Source: Candidatus Bipolaricaulota bacterium (GTDB lineage Bacteria > Bipolaricaulota > Bipolaricaulia > UBA7950 > UBA9294). From it: a stretch of 64,000 nt of DNA. The stretch is from assembly GCA_018817505.1 (NCBI GenBank), contig JAHITR010000028.1:13736-77735 (forward strand). Direction: 5' to 3'. The notes beneath the pieces were generated by a model that was not told the DNA's origin, ran no database searches, and was given only the letters and a program-made list of their open reading frames with translations. Positions 7,792 to 48,507 of this stretch are shown here, in pieces. Numbering within the stretch: position 1 is the stretch's first letter; each line of letters starts with the position of its first letter. The position numbers were made by a program, and so were the translations under genes.

Positions 7792-9110
7792 CGACTCCCT
7801 CCCAGCACTCGAGTCAACCGATCGAGCTCGTTCTTCGTTCGCTTTTCTGTCACAGCGAACCGAAGCACACGGTCGAGACCAAATGATTGAAGAGCCTGCG
7901 GCGCTTCAACAGCGAAGCCTGCCTGCACCAATGCATCGTGAATCTCGGTTGCGTCGCCAGGCACATTCACAATGAATTCATTGAAGAAATCTCCCGCAAA
8001 CGCCAATTCATATCCATCAATCGCCGTGATTCGATCCGCCAAATAATGCGCCTTCTCCAAATTCAGCTTGGCCACTTGCCTCAATCCAGCAGATCCTGCA
8101 CTGGCCAAATAGATCGTGGTCGCCAACGCACAGAGCGCCGAATTGGTGCAGATATTGGACGTGGCCCGCTGGCGGCGAATATGCTGCTCACGCGTCTGAG
8201 CGGCCATTGCATAGCCCGTCTTGCCATCCACATCGACGGTTCGTCCTGCGATGCGTCCGGGCATCTGCCGCAGATGTTCTTCACGCGCCGCAAACAGTCC
8301 CAGTAGCGGACCTCCATAACCCATGGCCAATCCAAGGGACTGCCCTTCGGCAACGACAATGTCGGCTTTGTAGGCACCCGGAGGCTGAAGCAATCCTAGC
8401 GACAAGGGATTGCAGGACACAATGAGCAATGCATCGCCGATCCGCTCCTTCAGCCCGGCCAACGGCTCAATCACACCGAATGCATTGGGCGTTTGCACGA
8501 CCACTGCCGAAAGCTGCTCTGGAAGTGACTGCCAATCAGCCGTCCCGTCGGGGAGATAGTTCATTTCGTGAATTTGGATGTCTGTTGCCCAGCAGTACGT
8601 ATCCAACGTGCGGCGCAGGTGAGAGAAAAGCGAGCGGGGAACCGCGACTGCTCCTCTCTTGCGAATGCGCTCTGCCATCAACACGGCTTCTGCCATCGCC
8701 GTCGCGCCGTCATACATCGACGCATTGGCGATATCCATGCCCGTCAGCTCGCAGACGTAGGTTTGAAACTCAAACATCGCTGTGAGCGTTCCTTGACTGA
8801 TCTCTGGCTGATAGGGCGTATAGGCAGTAACGAATTCGGAACGAGACAGCAAATTGCCAACCACGCTGGGCACGTAATGATCGTAGATTCCCCCACCCAG
8901 CAAGCAGACGGCATCTGTTGGCTTGTTGCGATCCGCCATGTCGCTCACGATGGAGGCGACTTCCATCTCGCTACGCGGCGGCAGCCCCAGGGGCCGGAAA
9001 CAACTTCGAACCGATTCAGGAATATCCGCAAACAATGCTTCAATCGAAGAAACGCCGATCGACGCAAGCATCTCGTCTCGATCGGCAGACGTATTGGGGA
9101 TGTAGCGCAT
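7788..9110 (-). CDS. gcvPA: glycine dehydrogenase (decarboxylating) subunit 1
   Basis: 440 aa. MRYIPNTSADRDEMLASIGVSSIEALFADIP N-terminus typical of GcvPA. Confidence 0.93.
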   Translation of the reverse strand: MRYIPNTSADRDEMLASIGVSSIEALFADIPESVRSCFRPLGLPPRSEMEVASIVSDMADRNKPTDAVCLLGGGIYDHYVPSVVGNLLSRSEFVTAYTPYQPEISQGTLTAMFEFQTYVCELTGMDIANASMYDGATAMAEAVLMAERIRKRGAVAVPRSLFSHLRRTLDTYCWATDIQIHEMNYLPDGTADWQSLPEQLSAVVVQTPNAFGVIEPLAGLKERIGDALLIVSCNPLSLGLLQPPGAYKADIVVAEGQSLGLAMGYGGPLLGLFAAREEHLRQMPGRIAGRTVDVDGKTGYAMAAQTREQHIRRQRATSNICTNSALCALATTIYLASAGSAGLRQVAKLNLEKAHYLADRITAIDGYELAFAGDFFNEFIVNVPGDATEIHDALVQAGFAVEAPQALQSFGLDRVLRFAVTEKRTKNELDRLTRVLGGSR

Positions 9111-24631: not shown

Positions 24632-24705
24632 GCAACTGAACTGTCTCGTTGTCAGATCCTGTGCATCCGGCTAGAATGCGTTATCACCGCGCCAAGGAGG
24701 CTGGT

Positions 24706-25398
24706 ATGATTCGAACCAAAAATCTGTGGTTGGTATTGGGTTTGGTCTTGAGCATGTCGCTCATCACGTTTGCCGCTACTCCATTTACGGAAACGTATGT
24801 TGTGGGTGGCACTGCAGTATGGTTGTTCAACAACACCACTGGAGAGACCGCGAACATTCTCCACCTGGAGTTTGCAGAGGACGTTACGCTCAGCGCGACA
24901 CTGGCAATCGGTGGGCAACTTGTCCCAATGGGCCCACTCACAGGCAAAGTCTTTGACTTCGCTGGATCCATCACCAAGGGCGGAACATTCCAGGTTTATG
25001 TGACCCCAGTCACTGCAGTTCCGGCTCTCGCACAGTGGCTCAAGATGGACGCGGTTGGCAATACCCTTCCGATTGGTTCTCCTTATTTCACGTCGCTCTC
25101 GGTTTTGGGACGACTATTTGGAATCGGTATTGTCGCATTGAGGGAAGCCAATCCAGCAGCTCTTGCTGCAGCATTCGAGCAGTTCTTCGCAGACAATGCG
25201 GATTATTTGGCTGGCCTCTCCGAATCGCTTGGCATGTCGCTTGCAGACTCCTTGATGCCCATTATTATGGCGTCTCCTGCAGAAGGCATCGAGAACTTCT
25301 TCAACACCATCATGGGGATGTTGGGAGTCACCAGTCTTGCTGAAGCCGTTACGGGAAGCGTGAACTGGACCGCCTTGTTTGCAGCGCTCGGGATGTAG
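24706..25398 (+). CDS. secreted hypothetical protein
   Basis: ATG at 24706 after an AAGGAGG RBS; signal peptide MIRTKNLWLVLGLVLSMSLITFAATPF. No recognisable domain. Confidence 0.5.
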   Translation: MIRTKNLWLVLGLVLSMSLITFAATPFTETYVVGGTAVWLFNNTTGETANILHLEFAEDVTLSATLAIGGQLVPMGPLTGKVFDFAGSITKGGTFQVYVTPVTAVPALAQWLKMDAVGNTLPIGSPYFTSLSVLGRLFGIGIVALREANPAALAAAFEQFFADNADYLAGLSESLGMSLADSLMPIIMASPAEGIENFFNTIMGMLGVTSLAEAVTGSVNWTALFAALGM

Positions 25399-25471: not shown

Positions 25472-27742
25472 TTAGGCCGATCGCAGCAATTCCGCGACGG
25501 TGCACGGTTCGAGGGGGTATTTGGTCGCCTGATGGCCCACAGCATGGCTTACAGCACTGGCCACAGCCGCATGAGCAGCCATAAGTGGCACTTCCCCCAA
25601 CCCTTTGGCTCCGAACGGGCCAGCCGAAAACTCGGCTTCAATAAAATCGACGCCCATATCGAGCACCACATCGCGGATCGTGGGTAGCCGATAGGTTGTC
25701 AGCCCGTTCACCATCAGGAACCCGTCCTTCTGGGGAATGTCCTCCATGAGCGCAAATCCTATGCCTTGCGCGACGCCTCCCTGTACCTGGCCCGTGGCCA
25801 ACGTACGATTGAGAATTCGGCCTGAATCGTGGACAGCCACAAAGTCAATGACGTCCGTTTCTCCAGTGACCGTGTCGACCTCAACTTCGGCAATATGGCA
25901 GGCGTACGCATAGACGGGATAGGCGTCTCCCAGGCCCGTCTGCGGATCCCAAGACACCGGTTCTGTCTTGGCCCAGCCTTCGACGGCGGGATCAAGGTTA
26001 TTCAGCCAGAACAAGTTGGCGATTTCGTCCCAACGCTGCCGAATTTCAGAGCGATCCATTCCGTTGCCAAGCGCAACCTCCTCAACACGTTCGCGGAGTT
26101 TCCTGGCTGCATCGAGCACGGCCAGTCCTGACATCATCGTTCCACGCGAAGCAACCGTCGGCCCTGAATCCGGAACGCGTGACGTATCCACAGGCGCCAG
26201 CTGAATTCGCTCGATAGAAACACCGAGCTCTTCTGCAGCAATTTGAAGCAGCGATGTGGTGAGCCCTTGTCCCATTTCCACAGTTCCCACGGCAACGGCA
26301 ACGGAACCGTCAGCTTCTAGCTTCATCGTCGCGCCAGCCTTGTCTAGGAAGGGAGCTTTTCCTCCTAATCCAACACCATACAGAACGCAGGAAATGCCAA
26401 GACCCCGCTTGATGTCGCGGTGTTGCTCATTGAAGGCGGCGATGGCTTCCAGTCGCTGATTCCATTCGACCATCTCTGTCGCACGGGCGAGCGAATCGGC
26501 CATTCCTACACTGGAATCAAGCAGTTGCTCGGTCGACGACCGATCGCCTTCGACAAGCACATTACGTCGTCGTATGTTTGCCCGATCCAAATTCAGCGCC
26601 TCAGCCAGCCGATCCAACTGCGCTTCGTGCGGGAAGATCACTTGCGGGCTTCCGAATCCTCGAAATGCACCATTGGGAACGGTGTTTGTCGCCACTGACT
26701 TAGCATTCACGCGAACATTGGGGATGCGATAGGGGCCTGCTGCCGTGCACAAACTTCGCCACAATACGGCAGAGCTGAGCGTTTGATAGGCACCCGCATT
26801 GAGGATGACATCCACATCAATGGCTGTGATCGTTCCGTCAAACATTGCTCCGGTTCGGTAATGCACACGGGACGGGTGGCGTTTGCTGGTCGTCAATACG
26901 TCTTCTCCGCGATCCAGGACCAGCTTCACAGGACGCCGAGTCTTCCAGGCCATGAGCGCGGCCAAGCTACAGATCTGCGACGGAACGTCTTCCTTGCCAC
27001 CGAATGCTCCTCCTGTCGTGGCCTGGATGACGCGGATCTTGGACATCGGAAGACCGAGCACCACAGAAACGGCCCGCTGCACATAGAATGGACACTGCAT
27101 CGATGCGTAGATGGCCATGCCACCGCCCTCTTCGGGAACAGCAATGGCCCCTTGGGTTTCAATATACGCGTGCTCTTGATAGCCCGTTTCGTAGTCACCC
27201 TCGATGATCACATCTGCTTGGGCAAAACCCGCATCTGCATCGCCCTTGTGCAAGACCATCTCATTAAATAGATTACCGCCCCCCTCAGCCGCAGCTTCAA
27301 GCGAGACGATGACGGGGGAATCAGAGCGAAGTGCCTCCACAGGATCGCTCACCACAGGCAATTCCTCATACGTGATCTTCATGCCCTCGGCTGCTTGCTT
27401 GGCCACTTTGCGGCTCGTTGCCGCGATAAGGGCCACGGGTTCGCCCACGTAGCGAACCACATCGCAAGCAAGCGCTGGCTGGTCATCGTAGATGACGTGA
27501 ACGACATTCTTGCCAGGCACGTCCTCATGGGTCACCAGACAACTCACATCCGGGTGAGAGAATGCTGACGCGAGATCCACGTGCATGACCTTGGCATGCG
27601 GAAGTGGACTGCGGACAACCCATCCATGGAGCATTCCGGGAAACGCGAGATCATCGACGTACTTCGCGTCACCGCGTACTTTGTCTACTGCGTCAGGACG
27701 CGATAGCCCAGCTCCAATCAGGGTTGTCCGCATGTGCGTCAT
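25472..27742 (-). CDS. xanthine dehydrogenase / aldehyde oxidase family molybdopterin-binding large subunit (stand-alone, no FeS or FAD domain)
   Basis: 756 aa. An N-terminal a/b-hammerhead region leads into the Mo-binding domains. Motifs: TTGGAFGGKED and PNGAFRGFGSPQ. The C-terminal motif reads ATGQVQGGVAQGIG where XDH has GQVEGAFVQGLG. Stop/start abutment with the carbamoyltransferase gene ending at 27745. Confidence 0.88.
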   Translation of the reverse strand: MTHMRTTLIGAGLSRPDAVDKVRGDAKYVDDLAFPGMLHGWVVRSPLPHAKVMHVDLASAFSHPDVSCLVTHEDVPGKNVVHVIYDDQPALACDVVRYVGEPVALIAATSRKVAKQAAEGMKITYEELPVVSDPVEALRSDSPVIVSLEAAAEGGGNLFNEMVLHKGDADAGFAQADVIIEGDYETGYQEHAYIETQGAIAVPEEGGGMAIYASMQCPFYVQRAVSVVLGLPMSKIRVIQATTGGAFGGKEDVPSQICSLAALMAWKTRRPVKLVLDRGEDVLTTSKRHPSRVHYRTGAMFDGTITAIDVDVILNAGAYQTLSSAVLWRSLCTAAGPYRIPNVRVNAKSVATNTVPNGAFRGFGSPQVIFPHEAQLDRLAEALNLDRANIRRRNVLVEGDRSSTEQLLDSSVGMADSLARATEMVEWNQRLEAIAAFNEQHRDIKRGLGISCVLYGVGLGGKAPFLDKAGATMKLEADGSVAVAVGTVEMGQGLTTSLLQIAAEELGVSIERIQLAPVDTSRVPDSGPTVASRGTMMSGLAVLDAARKLRERVEEVALGNGMDRSEIRQRWDEIANLFWLNNLDPAVEGWAKTEPVSWDPQTGLGDAYPVYAYACHIAEVEVDTVTGETDVIDFVAVHDSGRILNRTLATGQVQGGVAQGIGFALMEDIPQKDGFLMVNGLTTYRLPTIRDVVLDMGVDFIEAEFSAGPFGAKGLGEVPLMAAHAAVASAVSHAVGHQATKYPLEPCTVAELLRSA

Positions 27743-27744
27743 GC

Positions 27745-28767
27745 TTACAGACGCCCTCCCATGGTGAGGGTCATGATCGCCTTCTGAGTATGCAGTCGGT
27801 TCTCTGCTTGGTCATAAATCCACGACAGATCGTTGTCGCAGACATCAGGCATGGCCTCATGTCCTCGATCTACTGGCATGCACTGGAGTAGATGCCCGGG
27901 ACTGGTAAGCGCCTGCTTTTCAGCGGTGTAGCACCAGTTCTTGTACTTGAGGGCAATCTCGTGCTCCTTCTCTTTGCCAATATCGTATCGATCCTTGGTG
28001 AACCAATTGCGCGGGAAGACGACCGTGGCACCAGCAAGAGCTTTGTCCAAATCGTTCTCCACCGTGAATTGGCCCCCAGTCTGCTTGGCCAAATCCCGGC
28101 ACTGCTGCATGACGTTGGGATCCATGTCATACTCCGGCGGATGGGCAACAACAACGTCCATGCCGTACATCGACGAAATCAGTGCCGTTCCCTGAACAGA
28201 GCAGAGACCGCGGATCCACGGCGTGTAGGCCCACATAATGACAATCTTCCTTCCCTTGACCTTGCCTTCCAGTTTTTCGTGCATGGTGTAGATGTCTGTC
28301 AGCGACTGGCAGGGATGGTTGATGTCTGATGCCATGTTGATGACGGGAACGCCGGCATGTTCGCCGAACATTCTCATCACTTGGTCGCCAAAGCCGTAAT
28401 GGTCGATGGCGTCATCGAGCAGACGAATACCAATACCATCGCAGAACCGAGCCATCGCCTTGGCGGTATCCTTGACGGTTTCGCCGGCTCCTGGCTTGTC
28501 TTCGAGAGAGATGCGCATGGTCGACGGGTTGAGGAACTGGGCATGTCCGCCCAATTGTGTCATACCCGTTTCAAAAGACATCCGCGTGCGCGTCGATCCG
28601 GCAAAGAACAGCATGGCGAACGTCTTGTCTTCGAGAGTGTGATGCGGTTTCCTGCTGTAGTAGGCACCCTTCAGCTGATCCGTGACCTTCATCGCGATAT
28701 CGTACTCTTCGCGCGTCCAGTCAATCTCGCTGATGAGATTGCGACCTGCTAGATCAAACCAGCTCAT
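27745..28767 (-). CDS. YgeW-like knotted carbamoyltransferase, paralog B (divergent)
   Basis: ATG at 28765-28767 (MSWFDL) after an AGGAGG RBS. Carbamoyl-phosphate binding STRTR (FAGSTRTRMSF), HPCQ (HPCQSLTD), an IMWAYTPW block, and LLQCMPVDRG in place of the HCLPA motif. Confidence 0.8.
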   Translation of the reverse strand: MSWFDLAGRNLISEIDWTREEYDIAMKVTDQLKGAYYSRKPHHTLEDKTFAMLFFAGSTRTRMSFETGMTQLGGHAQFLNPSTMRISLEDKPGAGETVKDTAKAMARFCDGIGIRLLDDAIDHYGFGDQVMRMFGEHAGVPVINMASDINHPCQSLTDIYTMHEKLEGKVKGRKIVIMWAYTPWIRGLCSVQGTALISSMYGMDVVVAHPPEYDMDPNVMQQCRDLAKQTGGQFTVENDLDKALAGATVVFPRNWFTKDRYDIGKEKEHEIALKYKNWCYTAEKQALTSPGHLLQCMPVDRGHEAMPDVCDNDLSWIYDQAENRLHTQKAIMTLTMGGRL

Positions 28768-28845
28768 GCTTCCTCCTTGGAGGCGGCGCTCATCGCGGAG
28801 TTCGTAGCGCTTGACGCTACGAACCCCGCACAATGAATCGCAGCT

Positions 28846-29880
28846 TTACCCCATAATCAGGGCCATCATGCCCTTCTGCGCATGCAGACGGTTGGCGGCC
28901 TCTTCGATAATGACCGAGCTAGGGCCGTCAATGACTTCGTCAGTCACTTCCATATCCCGATCTGCTGGCAAACAATGCATGTAGATGGCGTCATTGGTGA
29001 GCTCCATCTTGTCCTGGGTGCAGATCCAATCCTTGTTCGCCTCAAAGATTTCCTTCGCAGCAGCCTCATCCCATGCGCGACCATCCGTTGCCTGCACAGT
29101 CCAAGCCTTGGGGTAGACAACGACGGCGTCCTTGAATGAGTCATCCATGTCGTGGGAGATCTGGAATGCACCACCATTCTTCTTGGCCAGATCCTTGGTT
29201 GCCTGCAGAATGCGGGGATCAAGATCCAATCCCTTGGGATGAGCCAACGTGACGTCCATGCCCATCATGGCCGCTGAGATGATGGCCGACTGAGGAACAG
29301 CCAGCGGTTTGGCTACTGACCCGGAATAGGCCCAGGACATCACGAATTTCTTGCCCTGCAGGTTGTTGCTGAGCTTCTCCTGCATGGTCATGACGTCTGC
29401 CAATGCCTGGCATGGATGGTAGATGTCGTCTTCCATGTTAATCACGGGGATCTTGGACCATTTGGCAAATTCACGCACAATGCGGTCGCCTTTTCCATAT
29501 TCCCAACCCGTCGGCTTTCCGTAGATGCGGATGGCAATCGCGTCACCCATTTCAGCCAATACTCGTGCAACGTCAGAGATGCGCTCTGTGGAGTAGGCCA
29601 CTTCATCGCCTTTGAGAGCTGGCGTGTAAACGGCACCCGGCTGAAGGAAGTGAGCGTGTCCGCCCATCTGCGTCATGCCAGCCTCGAACGAGTTACGTGT
29701 TCGAAGCGAGGAATTGTAGAACATCATGTGTAGCGTTTGCCCATCGAGCACTTTGTGCGGTTCGCGACGGATGAACTTCCTCTTCAGGTCGTGAGCTGTA
29801 TCAAGCATCGCCTCGATTTCGTCGCGGGAGAAGTCAAGCCACGTAATGAAATCGCGGCCACGAAGTGTTGTACTAGACAT
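28846..29880 (-). CDS. YgeW-like knotted carbamoyltransferase, paralog A
   Basis: AGGAGG RBS before MSSTTLRG. Motifs SLRTR, HPCQALAD, KKFVMSWAYSGSVAKPLAVPQ, MDVTLAHPKG and KDWICTQDKMELTNDAIYMHCLPAD closely follow the E. coli YgeW pattern as I remember it. Confidence 0.82.
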   Translation of the reverse strand: MSSTTLRGRDFITWLDFSRDEIEAMLDTAHDLKRKFIRREPHKVLDGQTLHMMFYNSSLRTRNSFEAGMTQMGGHAHFLQPGAVYTPALKGDEVAYSTERISDVARVLAEMGDAIAIRIYGKPTGWEYGKGDRIVREFAKWSKIPVINMEDDIYHPCQALADVMTMQEKLSNNLQGKKFVMSWAYSGSVAKPLAVPQSAIISAAMMGMDVTLAHPKGLDLDPRILQATKDLAKKNGGAFQISHDMDDSFKDAVVVYPKAWTVQATDGRAWDEAAAKEIFEANKDWICTQDKMELTNDAIYMHCLPADRDMEVTDEVIDGPSSVIIEEAANRLHAQKGMMALIMG

Positions 29881-29897: not shown

Positions 29898-30854
29898 CTA
29901 ATTCTTGGTAATCGTTGTTCCGGCGTTGCCTTCCAGGGCAGCAACTGCCTGATTGAGAGAGGTGATGATTGCCTTCTCCCCGCCCGCTTCGACAAATCGA
30001 ACGGCCGCTCGAACCTTGGGCTCCATGGAGCCCTTGGCAAAGTGGCCCTCTTCCGCATACTTCTTGGCTTCGGCAACAGTCATCTTCGAGAGGGATTTCT
30101 CGTCCGAAGTCTTGTAATTCAACCGTACACTGTCCACATCCGTGAGAACCATGAAGATCGACGCACCCACGTCGACAGCCAAACGTTCTCCTGCCAGATC
30201 CTTGTCAATGACTGCATCGACGCCAACAAGCTTCCCATCCTCGCGGATGACGGGGATGCCTCCGCCGCCGGAGGCAATGACGATCGCCTTGGCTTCCACG
30301 AGATGTCGGATCGAATCCTTCTCATGAATGGAGATCGGATCTGGCGAAGGCACAACTCGGCGCCAGCCACGGCCCGCGTCCTCACGAACGTTGTAGCCCT
30401 TATCCGATTCCAGGGCCTTGGCTTCGGCTTCAGAATAGAAGGGGCCTACGGGCTTGGTTGGATTGGAGAATGCCGGATCCTGCTTGTCTACGACAACCTG
30501 GGTCACGATGGTAGCGACAGGTATGTCGCCTCGACCCTGCTCTGCAAGCAGATTGCCCAGGTTCTGTTGAATCATGAGGCCGATGAACCCCTGCGATTCG
30601 GCCCCCAAAGCAAACAAAGGCATCGGTGCAGCGACCTCTTTGCCCGCTTCGTTTTGAAGCAGCAGGTTGCCCACCTGAGGTCCGTTGCCATGGGTGACCA
30701 CAACACGATACTTGCCGGACTCCACCATGTGTGCCAACTGCACGCACGTAACATGCACATTGGCCATCTGTTCTTCGTATGTGCCCTTCTGTCCCGGTTG
30801 AAGAATCGCATTGCCACCGAGAGCGACTACTACTGTCTTCTTTCCACCATCCAT
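29898..30854 (-). CDS. arcC: carbamate kinase
   Basis: TVVVALGGNA N-terminus and GGGGIPV motif of the amino-acid-kinase family; 318 aa. Confidence 0.9.
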   Translation of the reverse strand: MDGGKKTVVVALGGNAILQPGQKGTYEEQMANVHVTCVQLAHMVESGKYRVVVTHGNGPQVGNLLLQNEAGKEVAAPMPLFALGAESQGFIGLMIQQNLGNLLAEQGRGDIPVATIVTQVVVDKQDPAFSNPTKPVGPFYSEAEAKALESDKGYNVREDAGRGWRRVVPSPDPISIHEKDSIRHLVEAKAIVIASGGGGIPVIREDGKLVGVDAVIDKDLAGERLAVDVGASIFMVLTDVDSVRLNYKTSDEKSLSKMTVAEAKKYAEEGHFAKGSMEPKVRAAVRFVEAGGEKAIITSLNQAVAALEGNAGTTITKN

Positions 30855-30990: not shown

Positions 30991-31698
30991 TCATGCCTCC
31001 CAGATCTCTCGCATGCGATCCCAATGCTCGACCGTCTTGGCAAAGGCCGTATCGGCATCGCGTACCACAATGGCACCAAGTATCTCTTGATGAAGATCCA
31101 CCACATGCTGAATGTCATCCACATTCTTCAGGTAGTAATGCCTGGTGAATTCCCGATACACAAGCTGATCCATGGTGTCCAACAAGGGCGTTAGCGCAGC
31201 AGTAATCAGCGCGTTTCCTACGGCATCGGCCAATTCAGTATGGAATCGTTTGTCCGCATCGAAATAGGCATCAAAGTCGTCTTTGGCTGCATTTTCGCGC
31301 ATATCCTCGATGGACTTGCGCAACCGTGCTACCACTGCGCCCGATGCCTTGGACGCAACCAGAGCCGCAATGGGCGGTTCCAGTACGCCCCGTGCTTCCA
31401 TCACTTCGAGACATCCCATTTCGGATTCAATCAGATGGACTGCGGCAGTTTCATCGGAGGAACTGGGCTTACGCATGACGTAGTTGCCGCTTCCCGGACG
31501 GGATTCAATAATCGACATCGCTTGCAGCGCAGACAATGCTTCCCGGATGGATGGCCGACTCACACCCATCAATTCAGCCAGCTCGAATTCTGAGGGCAGT
31601 TTGCTGCTCACTGGATAATCGCCACGTTGAATCGCATCCACGATCTGCTCAGCAGCAATGGCGCTTACCTTGCGAGGTCGAACCTTCTTGAAAGACAT
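30991..31698 (-). CDS. GntR-family transcriptional regulator (FadR/FCD subfamily)
   Basis: N-terminal wHTH (LPSEFELAELMGVSRPSIREAL) and a C-terminal all-helical FCD-like domain. AGGAGG RBS. Confidence 0.85.
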   Translation of the reverse strand: MSFKKVRPRKVSAIAAEQIVDAIQRGDYPVSSKLPSEFELAELMGVSRPSIREALSALQAMSIIESRPGSGNYVMRKPSSSDETAAVHLIESEMGCLEVMEARGVLEPPIAALVASKASGAVVARLRKSIEDMRENAAKDDFDAYFDADKRFHTELADAVGNALITAALTPLLDTMDQLVYREFTRHYYLKNVDDIQHVVDLHQEILGAIVVRDADTAFAKTVEHWDRMREIWEA

Positions 31699-31775: not shown

Positions 31776-33134
31776 CTAAGGGAGGGCACGGAACAGGAAC
31801 TTCCCGCGACCTTCTTCAGCAAGCAATTCTCCATCCTGAACGATGATCTCGCCTCGAGAGATTGTCGATACGGCCTTGCCTGTCATCTCCCATCCTTCGT
31901 ACGGAGAGAAATCGGTTCTCATGTGCAGGAATGTCGCTTCAATCTCCCACTCCAGAGCCGGATCAAAGATCACCAAGTCCGCGTCCATGCCAATCTCAAT
32001 CGATCCTTTGTGACCATCTAGTCCGTAGATCTGAGCCGGCCCTTCGCTGAGAAGGCGAGGAATGTCCGTCACAGACAGCAATCCCTTCCCCACTCCCTCG
32101 GAGTAGAGAATCGGAAGAAGCGTCTCCACTCCAGGAAGACCATACGGAAGATCCACGAACGACCCTCGCCAGGTCTTTTGCTCGCGCGTAAACGGACAGT
32201 GGTCCGTGGCGACAAAGTCGATCACCCGATTCCTCAATCCGTTCCACAGCATCGTTTGATCCCCCAACGTGCGGAGCGCTGGGCTGGCAGAGAAGAGGTG
32301 TCCATCCATGCGCTCATAGGAATCGGCGCCCAGAACAAGATACTGCGGGCACGTCTCAGCAGTCATCGCTGCTCCTGACTTGCGCGCCTCTTGAACAGCC
32401 ATGATCCCCTTGGCAGAAGAGACGTGCACAATGTGAGTACGACAGCCTGTCTCAGCGGCCGCACGCCCGACCTGTGAGATCGCTGTCGATTCACAGAGTG
32501 CTGGACGCGCCCGCGCCAGGATGGACATGTCCGTCATCTGTTCGGGAGAAAGCGACTCCATGATCGAACGGATCAGATCTTCATCCTCACAATGAACGAG
32601 TGCCACGCAATCCAAGTCCGCCAAATGTTCGAACGCCCGCCGCATAATGGCAGGCGTCGTGCGCCGCCCTGACGACTCATAGGCCGTATAAAACTTGAAG
32701 CTCGTCACTCCGCGTCGCCGAGCTTCTGCAAACTCGCCCGATTCTTCGGGCTTCCACCCAACCACTTCTGCATGCAAGCCCACATCGATAATCGCGGGCT
32801 GGATATTCTCCATCCGTCGATCGATGTCCAGGGGAATCGAAGAACGCAAGGACCCCACCGTAAAGTCAAGAATGCTTGTCACTCCGCCAAACGCGGCAGC
32901 CACAGTCCCCGTGTAGAAATCGTCTGAGGATCGAGTCCCTGCGACGGGGAGATCCATGTGCGTGTGAGCATCGATGACTCCAGGGAACACCAACATTCCG
33001 TCTGCGTCAAGCACACGATGGCCAGACAATGCTGTTCCGAGAGCGGAAATGGTCTCTCCGTCAATCCCAATGTCCAGCTTTTGCGCGGACAGCGGCGTAA
33101 CCACTGTGCCGTTTCGAATGACAAGATCATGCAT
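31776..33134 (-). CDS. cyclic amidohydrolase of the hydantoinase / dihydropyrimidinase / allantoinase family
   Basis: PGVIDAHTHMDLP metal-binding His pair; GTVAAAFGGVTSILDF; a carbamylated-lysine context GVTSFKFYTAY. The start is probably the ATG at 33132-33134 (MHDLVIRNGTVV); the tool start at 33164 is a TTG. Confidence 0.85.
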   Translation of the reverse strand: MHDLVIRNGTVVTPLSAQKLDIGIDGETISALGTALSGHRVLDADGMLVFPGVIDAHTHMDLPVAGTRSSDDFYTGTVAAAFGGVTSILDFTVGSLRSSIPLDIDRRMENIQPAIIDVGLHAEVVGWKPEESGEFAEARRRGVTSFKFYTAYESSGRRTTPAIMRRAFEHLADLDCVALVHCEDEDLIRSIMESLSPEQMTDMSILARARPALCESTAISQVGRAAAETGCRTHIVHVSSAKGIMAVQEARKSGAAMTAETCPQYLVLGADSYERMDGHLFSASPALRTLGDQTMLWNGLRNRVIDFVATDHCPFTREQKTWRGSFVDLPYGLPGVETLLPILYSEGVGKGLLSVTDIPRLLSEGPAQIYGLDGHKGSIEIGMDADLVIFDPALEWEIEATFLHMRTDFSPYEGWEMTGKAVSTISRGEIIVQDGELLAEEGRGKFLFRALP

Positions 33135-33234
33135 AGGATGTCTCGATACCCTTTCAAGATGCAACTTGGAAAGTTGCCAAGCTGCATGATAGCATTACAG
33201 CTACAACTCCACAATCAAATCGAGGTAAAACGCC

Positions 33235-34704
33235 ATGATTGACCTGACGATACACGAAGGCAAGCTTCAGAATACCGTGCGCCGTGCGCGCGAGCGCGGT
33301 ATTGTTATTCCTACGTTCGAGCAGATGAAGAACCCGTCGCTCATTCCCGCAACCGTCAAGGCTGGATTGAAAGCCCACGGCTTGTGGGACCTTCATCCAC
33401 TCAACCTGTATCGCATCACCTGGAAGAACGAGCCCGTTCTTCAAGGCGGCGGCTTTGGCGGCGTCAATTATATCGAATTCCCATCTGCGCTCACGGGCGT
33501 CGACGCTCGCATCATTGCCCTCATCGGCAAGTGGTTCCCAACCGGAGCCCACAAAGTGGGAGCCACATTCGGTTGCCTCGTCCCTCGCTTGGTGACCGGT
33601 CAGTTCGACCCAACGTTCCACAAGGCCGTGTGGCCATCCACAGGAAATTTCTGCCGCGGCGGCGCCTACAACTCGGCACTGCTCGGCTGTGACTCCATTG
33701 CCATCTTGCCCGAGGAGATGTCCAAGGAACGATTTGCATGGTTGTCCAAGGTAGCTGGAGAGGTCATCGCTACACCGGGTTGCGAATCGAATGTTTGGGA
33801 GATTTTTCAGAAGTGCAAAGAGCTGCAAGCGACGCGGGACAACGTCATGATCTTCGACCAATTTGAGGAATTCGGAAACCATCTCTGGCACTACGACGTC
33901 ACTGGACATGCCATGCAAGACGTGCTGAACATCGAGCTCAAGGGCGGCCGATATGCTGGTGTCGTCTTGACCTCAGGATCAGGCGGCACCATGGGCTGTG
34001 GCGATTATCTGAAAGAACAGTATCCCGGCTCCAAGCTCATTGCCTCAGAGGCTCTTCAGTGCCCGACGATGCTTGAGAATGGGTTCGGCGGCCATCGCAT
34101 CGAAGGCATCGGCGACAAGCACATCCCATGGATTCACAACGTTCGGAATACAGACTTCGCGGTCGCCATTGATGACGAGGATCCCATGCACTTGATTCGG
34201 TTGTTCAATGAACCTGAGGGCAAGAAACATCTGCAATCGCTGGGGCTGTCGCCTGCATACGTGGAAGCGCTGGAACAGCTAGGCATCTCTGGCGTGGCCA
34301 ACGTGCTGGCTTCCATCAAATTCGCCAAGTACAACGAGTTGACGAGTTCCGACGTTGTACTCACGGTATTGACCGATTCCATGGAAATGTATGGTACGCG
34401 TCTTCAAGAACTGAATGAGTCCCTGGGGCCCTATACCACGAATCAGGCTGCCATCGATCACAGTCGACACATGCTGGGTCAGAAGACTGACTCCATGCAG
34501 GAATTAGGCTATCGTGATCGAAAGCGCATCCACAACCTGAAGTACTTCACATGGATCGAGCAGATGGGCCGGAGTGTCGCTGAACTCGATCGGCAATGGT
34601 ACGACTACGACGCCTACTGGGGGGGCATTCACAGCATGGTGCCCGCTATTGACAAGTTGATCGTGGAATTCAACGAAGCCGTCGGCCTGGAAGCCAAGCG
34701 CTAA
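33235..34704 (+). CDS. fold-type II (tryptophan-synthase-beta / cysteine-synthase-like) PLP-dependent enzyme, subfamily unknown
   Basis: Candidate PLP-lysine in FPTGAHKVGA. Downstream WPSTGNFCRGGA and LPEEMSKERFAWLSKVAGEV align by eye to the cysteine-synthase core. Long N-terminal extension (about 110 aa); 489 aa total. Confidence 0.7.
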   Translation: MIDLTIHEGKLQNTVRRARERGIVIPTFEQMKNPSLIPATVKAGLKAHGLWDLHPLNLYRITWKNEPVLQGGGFGGVNYIEFPSALTGVDARIIALIGKWFPTGAHKVGATFGCLVPRLVTGQFDPTFHKAVWPSTGNFCRGGAYNSALLGCDSIAILPEEMSKERFAWLSKVAGEVIATPGCESNVWEIFQKCKELQATRDNVMIFDQFEEFGNHLWHYDVTGHAMQDVLNIELKGGRYAGVVLTSGSGGTMGCGDYLKEQYPGSKLIASEALQCPTMLENGFGGHRIEGIGDKHIPWIHNVRNTDFAVAIDDEDPMHLIRLFNEPEGKKHLQSLGLSPAYVEALEQLGISGVANVLASIKFAKYNELTSSDVVLTVLTDSMEMYGTRLQELNESLGPYTTNQAAIDHSRHMLGQKTDSMQELGYRDRKRIHNLKYFTWIEQMGRSVAELDRQWYDYDAYWGGIHSMVPAIDKLIVEFNEAVGLEAKR

Positions 34705-34705
34705 A

Positions 34706-35692
34706 ATGGAACCCGTCTTTGGATCTCCACTCGCGCCGGTCGTTGAACTCATCCGTGCGCAAATGGAGAAACAGAGAAAGAAACAGCCTATCTTGCTCGT
34801 TGGCGGCATCGGATCGGGCAAGACGGCAGCCGGCCTCCGACTTTTGTCCCTGCTTCGCAGCTACGGGATTCAAGTCGGAGGCATTCTTGCTCCCCGCATT
34901 CTCAAGGGAGAGGAGACGATCGGATATTCGATCATCGACCTTGCCACCAATGCGACCCATCCCTTTGCTGGCTTGGAGCCATCGGATGTGCAAATCGGCA
35001 AGTACTACCTGTCCCAAGCCGGATTGGATCTGGCTGAACGAACGATCCGCAACGCCCTCAATGAACGGCCAGTCGTGTTCATCGACGAGGTGGGCCGATT
35101 AGAGCTTGAGGGCGGCGGACACGCACAGGCTATTCGCCAGCTGCTGAAATCCAACAGCGTGCCTGTGCTTCTGGTTCGTGATACGCTTGTTGAACAGGCC
35201 ATTCGCACGTTCGACATTACGAGTCCTTTCATCTTCCACGCTTCTGAAATGCAAGACACCGAAGAAATGGCACCCGGTGGCGCGCAGACGTTTTGGCAGA
35301 TCGTTGATTCCATCCCCTATCCCTTGCTTGTCACCATTAGCTCTCTCGATGGATTTCCTCAGTCACGCCCAATGCACTTGATCGATCACGATGCTCGGAC
35401 GGTATGGTTCGCCACATCCAGAGCATCGAACAAGATCAAGCAGATCGAGGGCAATTCACACGTGACCGTTTTGTTTGTCGATTCGGCCCGCTACAACTAC
35501 GCCGCGTTCCATGGCCATGCCCGTATCGTCGATGACGCCGATCGTGAACGAACGCTTTGGCGCAACGAGTGGGAGGAGGATTGGCCGGAAGGCCCTTCGG
35601 ATCCTGATTATGTTCTCATCCGCATCGACGGCATCCGAGGCCACTTTCTGCGTGGAGCTACGGGTGAGTCTGGTGAAGTCGAATTGGGCTAG
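34706..35692 (+). CDS. fusion protein: N-terminal P-loop NTPase (THEP1/DUF2478-like) and C-terminal pyridoxamine-5'-phosphate-oxidase-like FMN-binding split-barrel
   Basis: Walker A LLVGGIGSGKTAAG and Walker B VVFIDEVGRLE in the first 180 aa. The C-terminus (LLVTISSLDGFPQSRPMHLIDHDARTVWFATSRASNKIKQIEGNSHVTVLF) resembles the PNPOx / general-stress-protein-26 fold. Start is 2 nt after the PLP gene stop. Confidence 0.6.
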   Translation: MEPVFGSPLAPVVELIRAQMEKQRKKQPILLVGGIGSGKTAAGLRLLSLLRSYGIQVGGILAPRILKGEETIGYSIIDLATNATHPFAGLEPSDVQIGKYYLSQAGLDLAERTIRNALNERPVVFIDEVGRLELEGGGHAQAIRQLLKSNSVPVLLVRDTLVEQAIRTFDITSPFIFHASEMQDTEEMAPGGAQTFWQIVDSIPYPLLVTISSLDGFPQSRPMHLIDHDARTVWFATSRASNKIKQIEGNSHVTVLFVDSARYNYAAFHGHARIVDDADRERTLWRNEWEEDWPEGPSDPDYVLIRIDGIRGHFLRGATGESGEVELG

Positions 35693-35896
35693 ATGATTTC
35701 GATCCCACGTGGAGGGTGATTCGGCCGCTCAGCATGACTGGGATTCCCTGCAAGCGTTCAAGTGCAAAGCGCCCTCTCACTGAAGAATGCGGGACACATC
35801 GCTTTGTGAAACTCCGATGCTCTCGTTTCTGTGCCCTGGACTATTCCTCGTATACTCTGCTGGCTCATTCGTTCGTTCTTTGATTGGAGGGATGTC

Positions 35897-37123
35897 ATGG
35901 AGTGGCTGTATCTGGGGATCGGGCTCATCGTCGGGGCGTTTGTCAGTTGGCTGCTCGTTCGCGCCCGCGCTCAAGAAAAAGTGACGACACTGCGTGTCAG
36001 TGCGGCCAAATTGGAGGAAGAACTCCGCGCTGAGCGCGATAAGGCCGCATCGACGGACGTCCTCCAGGATCGAATGAAAGCGATGTTTGAGTCTTTGGCC
36101 CATCAAGCCCTGACATCCAACTCTGAGCAGCTTCTAGCACGCTCTCGTGAGCAGCTGGCCGGTCTCCTGCAGCAAGTCCGTGGCGATTGGGGCACACAAA
36201 AGGAGCAACTCAAGGGCTTGGTCGATCCGCTTAGCAAGGCATTAACGACTATGGATGAGCAGGTGCGTGCCATGGAACAGAAGCGCGAGGGAGCCTATCA
36301 GGGGCTTGGCGAGCAACTGCGCAATTTGGGCGATGCACAGATCCAACTTCGACAATCAACGATTCGGTTGGAGCAATCGCTCAAATCATCGACAGCCCGA
36401 GGACGCTGGGGAGAAATGCAACTGCGCCGCGTCGTCGAACTAGCAGGCATGACCAAGCATGTCGATTTCTCGGAGCAGGTATCAGGCGATCAGGGCCGCC
36501 CTGACATGATCGTCCGACTCCCCAATGAAGGCATTCTGCCAATCGACGCCAAGGCTCCGGCTGCCGCCTATCTGGATGCCATGAATCATGAAGGAGAAGC
36601 TCGCGCGCAGAAGCTGATCGAACATGCCAAAGCGATGCGCTCGCGCATTCAGGAACTATCGCGCAAGGCCTACATGGATCAATTCGAGAAGTCACCAGAG
36701 ATTGTCGTCATGTTCGTCCCGTTTGAATCCGCCTTATCAGCAGCATTCGAAAGCGATCCCGGCCTGCTAGAGTATGGCATCCAGCAGCGCATCCTGGTTG
36801 CTTCGCCAGTGACCTTGTTGGCGCTGCTCCGAGCAGCTGCCTTTGGATGGCAGCAATACCATATCGCAGAGCACGCGCAGCTTATCGCCAACCAGGGGCG
36901 CGAACTCTACACGCGATTTCTCAATGTCATCAAACCCATCGGCGATGCCGGAGACAAGCTCGGCAAAGCAGTCGATGCCTATAACAAGGCCATCAGCTCT
37001 ATTGAGACACGCCTCATGCCAGCACTGAGAAATCTCAAAGATTCGACTGCCGTGTCAGAGGAAGTGCCGGTTCTTGAGCCGCTTGAGCAGAACCCGCGAT
37101 TGCCTCTCGACGACGCACGCTAG
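35897..37123 (+). CDS. rmuC: DNA recombination protein RmuC
   Basis: N-terminal TM helix, a long coiled-coil region, and a conserved C-terminal nuclease-like core (IVVMFVPFESALSAAFESDP). Confidence 0.85.
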   Translation: MEWLYLGIGLIVGAFVSWLLVRARAQEKVTTLRVSAAKLEEELRAERDKAASTDVLQDRMKAMFESLAHQALTSNSEQLLARSREQLAGLLQQVRGDWGTQKEQLKGLVDPLSKALTTMDEQVRAMEQKREGAYQGLGEQLRNLGDAQIQLRQSTIRLEQSLKSSTARGRWGEMQLRRVVELAGMTKHVDFSEQVSGDQGRPDMIVRLPNEGILPIDAKAPAAAYLDAMNHEGEARAQKLIEHAKAMRSRIQELSRKAYMDQFEKSPEIVVMFVPFESALSAAFESDPGLLEYGIQQRILVASPVTLLALLRAAAFGWQQYHIAEHAQLIANQGRELYTRFLNVIKPIGDAGDKLGKAVDAYNKAISSIETRLMPALRNLKDSTAVSEEVPVLEPLEQNPRLPLDDAR

Positions 37124-47259: not shown

Positions 47260-48435
47260 CTACAGCCCAGTCAATGGGTACTGACGCCGCATAGCATCCA
47301 TCTCTTCCGGGTTGTTGGCTGTCGGAATGACGATGCTTCCATCGAGAATGCCTGCCTCCAACTCAGCGACGGCATCCCAAATCCAGGCCGGCACGGTTGC
47401 ACGGTTTGCTGACCAATGGGCCAACGTCGTGTAGAAGGCATCGCTGTCAAGGGCTTGCGCTTGGATACCGAAGTCGATGAATTCAAGCAGGTCCTCTACG
47501 TCGCTCATCCCGACGCCACCTTCTGCCAATCCAAGGCTGGTCACGCCTCCCACAAAAGTGCCCCGAGCAACCGCATTAACCGCCTGGATCGTGGCCACGT
47601 CAATACGCTTCATCCCGCTAGCCAACCCGTGGAAACCGCCGCCAAGGTAGTCCTGGTTCGCATCAACACCAAAGAAATAGGGTGGTCCGTAGCTCGTGTC
47701 AGCCAGCTCGTGATATTCGGCAATGGCCTGCAAATCGCCCAATCCCAACGCGCCCGCCACGTTGAAGATCGAAGCGGCCCCTTGGGCAAGCATCGCTTCA
47801 GATGCCGCTTTGCCAACGGCAATGTCCTGGAATGTGCCCGCATAGGTATAGAGCATGCCGACACTCACCGGATTTCCCGTGACTTGTGTATAGCGCGCGA
47901 GCCCCCAGTCCATGCCGAATCGATAGCCTGCCTCAAAGTGATAGAGAACGGGAATCTCAATGCCCAGAACCATTCCCGCGTAGGCATAGCCGTGATACCC
48001 AGCGGTCAATGCTGCCAGAGCACCGACAAGGGCTGACATTTCGTTTTCACGGAATGTAATCGACATCACATTGGCTAGGTTTGAGACGAAGCCACCCACG
48101 GTCACGAATCGTTGCGTCGGATACTCGCCAGCCGCTTGCGCAACGGCATCGGCGAACAAGGAGCCGAAGCTGAGGATGACATCGAACTGTTGGGTTCGTG
48201 CCAGATCGCGAAGCGTGGGAAGATAATCGGCCGTCGAAACGCTCTGAGCGGTGGTCAACGACAATCCCAGCTGTTCCGCAGCCTCTGAAGCGCCTTTGAA
48301 GCCCATGTCATTGAAGGAAAGGTCTCCGCGTCCCCCGCCAAGCACAATCGCCATCTTGCCCGTTGAGGCACAGCCCATGGCTGCGATCATCACGACGAGA
48401 AGGATTAACAGACTCAGACTACTCAATGTACGCAT
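47260..48435 (-). CDS. BMP-family (PnrA/Med-like) ABC-transporter substrate-binding lipoprotein
   Basis: GAAGGAG RBS, then MRTLSSLSLLILLVVMIAAMGCAS (lipobox). IVLGGGRGDLSFNDMG and FGSLFADAV blocks typical of basic membrane lipoproteins. Confidence 0.82.
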   Translation of the reverse strand: MRTLSSLSLLILLVVMIAAMGCASTGKMAIVLGGGRGDLSFNDMGFKGASEAAEQLGLSLTTAQSVSTADYLPTLRDLARTQQFDVILSFGSLFADAVAQAAGEYPTQRFVTVGGFVSNLANVMSITFRENEMSALVGALAALTAGYHGYAYAGMVLGIEIPVLYHFEAGYRFGMDWGLARYTQVTGNPVSVGMLYTYAGTFQDIAVGKAASEAMLAQGAASIFNVAGALGLGDLQAIAEYHELADTSYGPPYFFGVDANQDYLGGGFHGLASGMKRIDVATIQAVNAVARGTFVGGVTSLGLAEGGVGMSDVEDLLEFIDFGIQAQALDSDAFYTTLAHWSANRATVPAWIWDAVAELEAGILDGSIVIPTANNPEEMDAMRRQYPLTGL

Positions 48436-48479
48436 GAAACGACTCCTTCGCTTTTCACCCTGGGTTGACTTCATCAATT

Positions 48480-48507
48480 TTCGACAATCAGTTGCCAAAG
48501 ATTGTCA
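48480..48507. promoter_or_regulatory. imperfect inverted repeat TCGACAAT-n12-ATTGTCAA upstream of the BMP lipoprotein gene (candidate operator)
   Basis: The half-sites match 7 of 8 as reverse complements. The repeat lies about 45-70 nt upstream of the start codon on the minus strand. Confidence 0.25.

Follow-up and report, generated by a model that had tools for sequence, protein, structure and literature searches.

The locus described here lies in a 64,000-nt stretch of DNA (the window, meaning the whole stretch analysed) within contig JAHITR010000028.1, a 92-kb contig of a Candidatus Bipolaricaulota metagenome-assembled genome (MAG). Two adjacent genes on its plus strand encode a fold-type II pyridoxal 5'-phosphate (PLP) enzyme and a fusion of a P-loop NTPase to a split barrel of the pyridoxamine 5'-phosphate oxidase-like (PNPOx-like) type:

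33235..34704, plus strand: PLP enzyme of fold type II, from an uncharacterised clade within the CysK/CBS/SbnA branch; putative beta-eliminating lyase for C3 amino acids in the YgeX slot of the urate pathway outlined below
34706..35692, plus strand: THEP1-type P-loop NTPase (about nt 34790-35185), disordered linker and GSP26/COG3871 PNPOx-like split barrel (about nt 35285-35641)

The open reading frame (ORF) of the PLP enzyme begins with ATG, encodes 489 aa and ends in a TAA stop at 34702-34704; a single base (A) separates this stop from the ATG of the fusion ORF, which encodes 328 aa. Identical sequences are public under generic NCBI names only: the 489-aa protein, MBU1048783.1, is entered as 'pyridoxal-phosphate dependent enzyme', and the fusion, MBU1048784.1, called by NCBI as one 328-aa protein, as 'pyridoxamine 5'-phosphate oxidase family protein'.

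The sole Pfam match of the PLP enzyme is PF00291 (52.7 bits against a gathering score of 35, residues 129-326), and its nearest solved relatives are CysK and CBS, at 22-26% identity (7n2t, E = 1.5e-19, residues 86-330). This match and alignment delimit a CysK-like core at about residues 86-390, preceded by an extension of about 85 aa and followed by one of about 100 aa, which bears out the first-pass annotation, made from the sequence alone, in its description of a CysK-like core with a long N-terminal extension. About 160 extra residues find no counterpart in the PDB, and the template-modelling (TM) score normalised to the query is about 0.55. The CysK-type catalytic residues are intact: K107 aligns with the Schiff-base lysine, the asparagine loop reads S135-T-G-N-F139, the phosphate loop reads G248-S-G-G-T252, and S352, within a GIS-G motif, occupies the position of the serine that contacts the pyridine nitrogen. 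These motifs are at least 90% conserved among 22 family members, and the N-terminal extension has invariant residues of its own (P26, P34, N57, L58, W63 and P83). The structure is predicted with confidence and in fold comes nearest to enzymes of beta-elimination or beta-replacement, among them SbnA and CmnB, which form 2,3-diaminopropionate.

The enzyme falls below every curated NCBIfam cut-off (cysK, 88.7 against 351 bits; CBS, 70.2 against 510; SbnA, 39.3 against 350; CysM, 35 against 394), likewise scores far under that of the cysteate synthase model, and belongs neither to the YgeX models TIGR01747 and NF006058 nor to any clear orthologue group of Escherichia coli YgeX. The earlier impression that it fits no well-known subfamily therefore holds. 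OrtB (2-amino-4-oxopentanoate thiolase), a protein of similar length, was considered and rejected, since neither the enzyme nor its relatives at 30-45% identity match NF040741. The family is large: a word search returned at least 8000 candidates, the best 120 of which are all at least 72% identical, and at least 366 species-level genomes encode a relative. In a library clustered at 50% identity, a single main representative stands for the family, next to about ten relatives of full length that share 30-45% identity with it and none of which fits a curated family, and our literature search found no paper describing the clade. Judged by these comparisons, the PLP enzyme is a member of a large, highly conserved, unnamed and structurally elaborated clade of the CysK branch.

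The surroundings of the gene recall the reductive urate pathway, which was worked out in gut bacteria in 2025 (bioRxiv 10.1101/2025.05.19.654654, 10.1101/2025.04.24.650524). In the published scheme, urate is converted to 2,8-dioxopurine by XdhD, and reduction by YgfK or UacX and ring opening by SsnA lead to ureidomethyl-hydantoin; HyuA produces 2,3-diureidopropionate, YgeW (with YqeA making ATP) and YgeY carry this to 2,3-diaminopropionate, and YgeX, the defined exit to pyruvate, yields pyruvate and ammonia (10.1101/2025.05.19.654654, 10.1101/2025.04.24.650524). In the window, the gene pair is divergent, as the first-pass annotation had noted, from a minus-strand ureide/purine cluster that includes a subunit of the xanthine dehydrogenase (XDH) family, and the two halves are tightly syntenic in related genomes:

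25472..27742, minus strand: XDH-family molybdopterin subunit (PF01315, PF02738, PF20256)
27745..28833, minus strand: second carbamoyltransferase, OTC2, with the ornithine carbamoyltransferase (OTCase) fold; about 40% identical to OTC1
28846..29880, minus strand: carbamoyltransferase OTC1, like N-acetylornithine carbamoyltransferase (AOTCase) and YgeW (PF02729 and PF00185; NF003384, 318.9 bits against 288)
29898..30854, minus strand: carbamate kinase of the YqeA/ArcC type (TIGR00746, 435.5 bits, above the cut-off of 358)
30991..31698, minus strand: GntR/FCD-family transcription regulator (PF00392 and PF07729)
31776..33134, minus strand: HyuA-like hydantoinase, a dihydropyrimidinase-like cyclic amidohydrolase of 452 aa (TIGR02033, 368.6 bits, just below the cut-off of 393)
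33135..33234, no strand: divergent intergenic region with a dyad and a conserved box
35831..37123, plus strand: RmuC-family gene, a syntenic neighbour (PF02646)

The downstream half of the pathway is thus represented in the window by a HyuA-like hydantoinase, a YgeW-like carbamoyltransferase and a YqeA-like carbamate kinase. Across Bipolaricaulota, the hydantoinase homologues are 38-40% identical to E. coli HyuA and the carbamate kinases 46-48% identical to YqeA; OTC1 is 73-95% identical within the phylum, and related loci encode homologues of it that share 33-37% identity with YgeW. Although OTC1 passes the NCBIfam equivalog for N-acetylornithine carbamoyltransferase, its neighbour is carbamate kinase and its cluster one of ureide/purine catabolism; automatic annotation is therefore likely to give it a wrong name.

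We mapped 85 loci carrying the PLP enzyme (labelled L0nn), from at least seven phylum-level groups, with the window proteins, the proteins of the E. coli ygeW-xdhD island and proteins of related loci; species-level loci with at least 8 kb on each side (n = 28) are referred to as well flanked. In Bipolaricaulota, a recurrent order was found, in which the genes for the XDH molybdopterin subunit, OTC2, OTC1, carbamate kinase, the GntR regulator and, in part of the loci, the hydantoinase face the divergent PLP gene, the NTPase/PNPOx gene or genes and RmuC; it is kept down to 68% identity of the PLP enzyme. Genes for XDH, OTC, carbamate kinase or hydantoinase accompany the PLP enzyme in 25 of the 28 well-flanked loci. 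Outside this phylum, the enzyme is 59-70% identical and stands amid bona fide genes of the reductive urate pathway, in Halanaerobiales, Clostridiales, Desulfotruncus arcticus, Ca. Formimonas warabiya, Synergistales, Fraserbacteria, Ca. Phoenicimicrobium and Cloacimonadota. Its partners there include YgfK (TIGR03315, 1049 bits), a YgeY 70% identical to that of E. coli (TIGR03526, 731 bits), amidohydrolases resembling SsnA (34-37% identity to the E. coli protein), D-hydantoinase, the molybdenum, FAD and Fe-S subunits of XDH, one to three carbamoyltransferases and carbamate kinase, so that the gene set across the 85 loci includes XDH, YgfK or UacX, SsnA, HyuA, YgeY, YgeW-like carbamoyltransferases and carbamate kinase. 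YgeX is a member of the E. coli island; the window and all 85 loci are without a YgeX orthologue.

The capacity for removing ureido groups also recurs in these loci. Every sufficiently flanked locus that carries an OTC gene encodes at least two candidate deureidating enzymes, as two OTCs, an OTC with an M20 peptidase, or three OTCs with an M20 peptidase, which fits a fully deureidated substrate for the PLP enzyme. The tightest sub-module consists of two OTC genes and carbamate kinase next to the PLP gene (L040, L053, L058 and L085). In one locus of the fused type (L088, 1-1135), an M20 peptidase gene occupies the OTC2 slot, giving the order M20, OTC, carbamate kinase, GntR and hydantoinase, divergent from the PLP gene and the fusion; this swap suggests that one ureido group can be taken off equally well by hydrolysis or by phosphorolysis. 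The first pathway step may vary as well. Two loci from MAGs labelled Bipolaricaulota or Thermotogota (L017:1996-8330 and L019) carry, between the GntR and hydantoinase genes, a DHO_dh+Fer4 reductase resembling UacX/PydA, an SsnA-like amidohydrolase and two tungsten-type aldehyde:ferredoxin oxidoreductase (AFOR) genes, and lack XDH, which suggests an AFOR-based variant of that step.

Gene content, domain identities, conservation of the catalytic motifs, synteny and the missing YgeX are direct observations; the substrate and reaction of the PLP enzyme are our best reading of its context and of the YgeX absence in the 85 loci. Because of the pathway-cluster setting, the lack of YgeX and the deureidation capacity, we propose, at close to but somewhat less than even confidence, that the two genes form the plus-strand half of a GntR-controlled divergent locus encoding a Bipolaricaulota variant of the anaerobic reductive uric-acid pathway, in which the PLP enzyme replaces YgeX non-orthologously. 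In this scheme the HyuA-like hydantoinase would open a 5-substituted hydantoin (ureidomethyl-hydantoin in the published pathway) to 2,3-diureidopropionate, the two carbamoyltransferases would strip both ureido groups by phosphorolysis, carbamate kinase would turn the two carbamoyl phosphates into ATP, and the 489-aa enzyme would convert 2,3-diaminopropionate to pyruvate and two NH3. The chemistry would be of the CysK type, with an external aldimine on K107, beta-elimination to aminoacrylate and subsequent hydrolysis, and the fusion would be a lineage-specific accessory co-transcribed with the lyase.

Several observations weigh against this proposal. The upstream part of the pathway (an XdhD-type molybdenum enzyme with an electron-transfer partner, YgfK or UacX, and SsnA) is not represented in the window: a search of its 64 kb for YgfK, SsnA, UacX, AFOR, the FAD and Fe-S subunits of XDH, the ThrC-like protein described below and M20 peptidases found none of them, so the upstream half is at most putative for this genome. 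Genes of this kind do occur in related loci (L017, L040, L045 and L085; L045, for instance, has YgfK-like and XDH small-subunit genes nearby), and those missing here may lie elsewhere in the genome. Three well-flanked loci (L016, L073 and L079) lack purine genes altogether. In L016 and probably L079, ORFs of ABC-transporter size, judged by size alone, take their place. Stereochemistry is a further difficulty: enzymes of the CysK branch normally act on L-amino acids, and YgeX takes both isomers of 2,3-diaminopropionate. The published pathway product is (R)-/D-2,3-diaminopropionate (10.1101/2025.05.19.654654, 10.1101/2025.04.24.650524).

A competing candidate for the lyase also has to be reckoned with. 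In 14 non-Bipolaricaulota loci, the PLP enzyme adjoins a ThrC-like PLP protein of about 415 aa with an N-terminal CxxC...CxxC zinc ribbon (L072:11501-12751, L040:7530-8804, L085:15115-16368 and 11 others), which scores just under the threonine synthase cut-off (NF006050, 298.6 against 303 bits). It could be the lyase in these 14 loci, being slightly nearer to YgeX (21-25% identity) than the 489-aa enzyme is, or else a racemase.

The PLP enzyme might instead act on another pathway intermediate or another C3 amino acid, an option we regard as a minority one of some substance: it could eliminate urea from albizziin (3-ureidoalanine), or serve as a PLP-type L-serine/cysteine ammonia-lyase in the branch of purine fermentation that runs from glycine through serine to pyruvate. 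The CysK-branch fold and motifs suit beta-substituted L-alanines, and one of the published versions of the pathway passes through albizziin (10.1101/2025.05.19.654654). The near-constant presence of at least two deureidating enzymes speaks against the albizziin variant, as these would be superfluous if urea were lost by beta-elimination. The serine variant draws on a serine hydroxymethyltransferase gene found in L038, L054 and L064, which in the last two immediately precedes the PLP gene; such adjacency is rare (3 of 85 loci), however, and no genes of a glycine or formiminoglycine pathway were seen beside the PLP gene in Bipolaricaulota. The proposal that the enzyme fills the YgeX step with 2,3-diaminopropionate as substrate is kept in what follows.

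We turn to the second gene of the pair. Profile searches recover both halves of the fusion well above their gathering scores, PF03266 (NTPase_1) at residues 29-160 (78.9 against 23.9 bits) and PF16242 (Pyrid_ox_like) at residues 194-312 (76.5 against 28.8 bits), so that the PNPOx-fold signature predicted by eye is present, together with a THEP1-type Walker NTPase. For DUF2478 itself (PF10649) the score is 22.2 against a cut-off of 22.3; several homologues carry a precomputed match to this family, on which a literature search returned nothing useful. Walker A (G33-x4-GKT40) and Walker B (D127-E128, as hhhhDE) are invariant in 23 homologues. The AlphaFold 2 model (pLDDT 86) agrees with the profiles in showing two well-folded domains joined by a linker of low pLDDT at residues 185-190; Foldseek aligns the C-terminal domain with 2i02, 2hq7 and 2fhq (TM 0.83-0.89; sequence match to 2i02, E = 1.7e-12) and the N-terminal domain with THEP1 (1ye8, TM 0.72) and also with human NTPCR (2i3b). 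The N-terminal domain does not reach the NCBIfam equivalog NF010248 (78 against 156 bits).

More specific identities were tried for each half and discarded. The C-terminal half is not PdxH (TIGR00558, 16.7 against 180 bits, over a match of only about 70 residues), nor an F420-dependent PPOX-class protein (TIGR03618, 38.6 against 79 bits). The P-loop half had been compared with YqeC on account of its relative position in the gene cluster; this is an analogy only, given an hhalign probability of 8% over 36 columns around Walker A and no match to TIGR03172. Nor is the ORF an annotation artefact of two genes with a missed stop, because the same two-domain architecture recurs in many clusters and NCBI calls a single protein: 156 clusters were found with E <= 1e-5, and the best 120 of the 156 all carry both domains, at 50-89% identity.

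The combination had initially been taken as unprecedented, a view that its recurrence throughout Bipolaricaulota overturns. Among 35 species-level loci with both domains downstream of the PLP gene, 15 have them fused and 20 have them split into adjacent genes, CP070725.1 being a complete genome of the split kind. Five further fused homologues (50-65% identical) were sampled independently, starting from the fusion and not from the PLP enzyme, and each of them directly follows the PLP gene in the same synteny, beside the ureide-cluster genes, and in other fused loci the PLP gene and the fusion overlap or are separated by at most 32 nt. The fused or split pair is confined to loci of the Bipolaricaulota type, is always downstream of the PLP gene, and almost excludes the ThrC-like gene, the two occurring together only in L045. 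Fused in some loci and split in others, the two domains are thereby functionally linked, and the fusion is a real, lineage-specific Rosetta-stone case. The NTPase domain has alternative fusion partners too, as it is joined to an S-adenosylmethionine (SAM)-dependent methyltransferase in L049, L062 and L063 (L062:11466-14519); in the L062 clade the order is PLP gene, XdhC-like gene, NTPase-methyltransferase and a separate PNPOx-like gene.

What the fusion does can be addressed only tentatively. In eight loci, the PLP gene and the NTPase are separated by an XdhC-like gene, of the kind involved in molybdenum-cofactor (Moco) insertion. Searches by tblastn with the FAD and Fe-S subunit proteins of XDH detected genes for them neither in the 64-kb window nor in any of the 16 Bipolaricaulota loci that have the XDH molybdenum subunit together with the NTPase; XDH clusters without the NTPase, in other phyla, mostly carry both. 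These two patterns hint at a role in cofactor handling or maturation, and we suggest, with confidence well short of even, that the fusion may be an NTP-driven, flavin-binding cofactor-handling or maturation factor for enzymes of the cluster, possibly for the orphan molybdopterin subunit. The suggestion has to accommodate contrary facts. The fusion or pair is kept in loci without XDH or AFOR within 10 kb (L008, L011, L016 and L044), no locus of the PLP enzyme outside Bipolaricaulota has it, and in one clade the NTPase is fused to the methyltransferase instead; we know of no THEP1 or GSP26 family member with an established physiological role. Another conceivable function, substitution of the PNPOx-like domain for the YgfK/UacX reductase, is weakened by L017, which has both the DHO_dh/Fer4 reductase and the fusion.

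The same XdhC-like genes could be taken further, to a module for maturation of molybdo- or tungsto-pterin enzymes in which the PLP enzyme, the NTPase, the PNPOx-like domain and, where present, the XdhC-like protein act together, the PLP enzyme being a cysteine desulfhydrase that supplies sulfur (or selenium) and the NTPase a counterpart of YqeC/CoxD. The top structural matches of the PLP enzyme are indeed the H2S-producing CysK homologues Fn1220 and Fn1055, an XdhC-like gene also follows the PLP gene in L046, and XDH or AFOR genes are frequent neighbours. We consider such a module improbable all the same. The PLP enzyme (66-91% identity) is far more conserved than a usual accessory and than the NTPase (33-90%); its tightest partners are carbamate kinase and the OTCs, not XDH, and L040, L053, L058 and L008 have no XDH nearby; and the NTPase has no homology to YqeC. 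Known Moco sulfuration, moreover, uses fold-type I enzymes of the NifS/IscS kind.

The one-base gap between the two genes raises a different idea, that the fusion serves the PLP cofactor itself, its P-loop domain acting as a kinase and its barrel as an oxidase of pyridoxine or pyridoxamine phosphate (PNP or PMP), so as to regenerate or salvage PLP when, for instance, an abortive transamination has produced PMP. A kinase-oxidase fusion would unite two consecutive salvage steps, and the pair stays with the PLP gene even in loci without XDH. We nonetheless judge this quite unlikely, as the PdxH model is missed by a wide margin and the C-terminal domain belongs to the GSP26/COG3871 subgroup, in which we know of no demonstrated PNP oxidase. 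THEP1-type proteins are NTPases, and we know of none that is a small-molecule kinase. The PLP enzyme also does without the fusion in all other phyla, and the union of the NTPase with a methyltransferase in one clade fits salvage poorly.

Synteny by itself must be read with care in this phylum. An RmuC gene follows the fusion in 21 loci, and this equally conserved adjacency, of a gene that is probably outside the system, shows that neighbourhood need not mean common function. The fusion could in the same way be a general-stress-type flavoprotein with an NTPase domain, syntenic with the locus and functionally unlinked to it; its restriction to one phylum and the description of GSP26 proteins elsewhere as stress proteins (in PDB titles) are in keeping with this. 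We hold it to be unlikely, since the fusion nearly abuts or slightly overlaps the PLP gene, the gene order survives a drop in NTPase identity to 33-40%, and the two domains remain together whether fused or split. A role in the cofactor handling or maturation of cluster enzymes thus stays our preferred, if tentative, view of the fusion.

The divergent arrangement places possible control elements between the two gene sets. For the hydantoinase, the most likely start codon is the ATG at 33134 (452 aa), not the TTG at 33164, because the resulting length equals that of the called gene in L083 (452 aa), and the shared intergenic region is consequently 33135-33234. The GntR-like palindrome CTTGG-n7-CCAAG noticed in the first-pass annotation is indeed present at 33165-33181, inside a longer dyad, TGCAACTTGG-n7-CCAAGCTGCA, at 33160-33186, with 9 of 10 arm positions matching; about two dyads of this kind, one mismatch allowed, are expected by chance per window. 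Its exact form, however, occurs only in the window and is absent from the 76 other related upstream regions checked. Across 13 aligned intergenic regions from related loci, the palindrome is not kept in full, and its CTTG-N9-CAAG core is retained in about 9 of 12 close loci; a 23-nt box, TTGCCAAGCTGCATGATAGCATT, at 33174-33196, unique in the window, is much more strongly conserved. A GntR/FCD regulator gene is present in 40 of the 85 loci, all of the Bipolaricaulota type. It is plausible that the dyad and box form a regulatory site; because the exact palindrome is confined to the window and only the core and the adjacent box are conserved, its identity as a GntR operator is putative. A scan of the intergenic region for consensus sigma-70 promoters found none, and the sequence TTGGAA-18-TAGCAT with a TG extension is at most a speculative promoter candidate.

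The remaining genes of the window are housekeeping genes (PolA, the glycine-cleavage P protein, DnaB, S2, RecG, IspD and ABC transporters). A 249-aa ORF without Pfam match and with a hydrophobic N-terminal stretch lies at 24649-25398 on the plus strand, with no evident link to the locus; its position, upstream of and divergent from the XDH gene, is kept in L083 and L084, where it has 225 aa. Also not linked to the locus are a PnrA/Bmp-type nucleoside-binding ABC substrate-binding protein (47260-48498, minus strand) and two glycine-cleavage P-protein subunits (6343-9110, minus strand), which could be relevant to the purine and glycine metabolism of the organism.

On the sequence evidence, the PLP enzyme seems to take over the YgeX step where the pathway occurs in environmental organisms, here together with two carbamoyltransferases and carbamate kinase. 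An unnamed PLP family would then hold the YgeX position in environmental anaerobes, among them Bipolaricaulota, Cloacimonadota, Halanaerobiales, Clostridia and Synergistota. A survey from the Zhang laboratory scored 'YgeX' by the presence of PF00291, and surveys relying on this domain alone would lump the PLP enzyme with YgeX. If the assignment is correct, it completes pathway reconstructions for widespread subsurface and sediment phyla and means that the terminal step has two enzymes of different structure. The arrangement with two carbamoyltransferases suggests that up to two ATP per substrate could be gained from the ureido groups, and the fused or split pair offers a genomic context for THEP1 and GSP26, families without a known physiological role. 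These strands can be combined into a bolder picture, to which we give little credence as a whole: an energy-optimised urate/ureide pathway would channel both ureido groups into ATP through the two carbamoyltransferases and use a structurally new CysK-derived lyase for YgeX, and the fusion would be a new NTP-dependent accessory that the E. coli and Clostridium systems lack, for instance one that activates, repairs or delivers electrons to the orphan molybdopterin subunit or the PLP enzyme.

Set against known systems, the PLP enzyme shares with YgeX/DpaL the fold-type II PLP architecture (PF00291) and, it seems, a place as the sole PLP enzyme processing free amino acids beside HyuA-, YgeW- and YqeA-like genes, and the two are mutually exclusive in 85 of 85 loci. 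From CysK, CysM and CBS, and from SbnA and CmnB, which perform O-acetyl- or O-phosphoserine-dependent beta-replacement, it is set apart by an identity of only 22-26%, by its failure to reach the curated models and by a context of catabolic purine/ureide breakdown rather than sulfur assimilation or siderophore synthesis. The N-terminal domain of the fusion resembles THEP1/NTPCR (Aquifex aq_1292 and human NTPCR) in its PF03266 match, Walker motifs and structural similarity to 1ye8 and 2i3b, and is borderline for DUF2478, but stays under the equivalog cut-off and is joined to a split barrel or, in a sister clade, to a methyltransferase. With YqeC it has in common that it is a small P-loop protein near an XDH-family gene, and that an XdhC/YqeB-like gene adjoins it in eight loci; homology does not extend beyond Walker A, however, and YqeC matches occur in no related locus. 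The C-terminal domain, a predicted flavin binder, is alike in PF16242 and in structure (TM 0.83-0.89) to the FMN/FAD-binding split barrels of GSP26/COG3871 (2i02, 2hq7, 2fhq, 3ec6 and 3u34), and differs from them in being joined to an NTPase and encoded in a catabolic operon.

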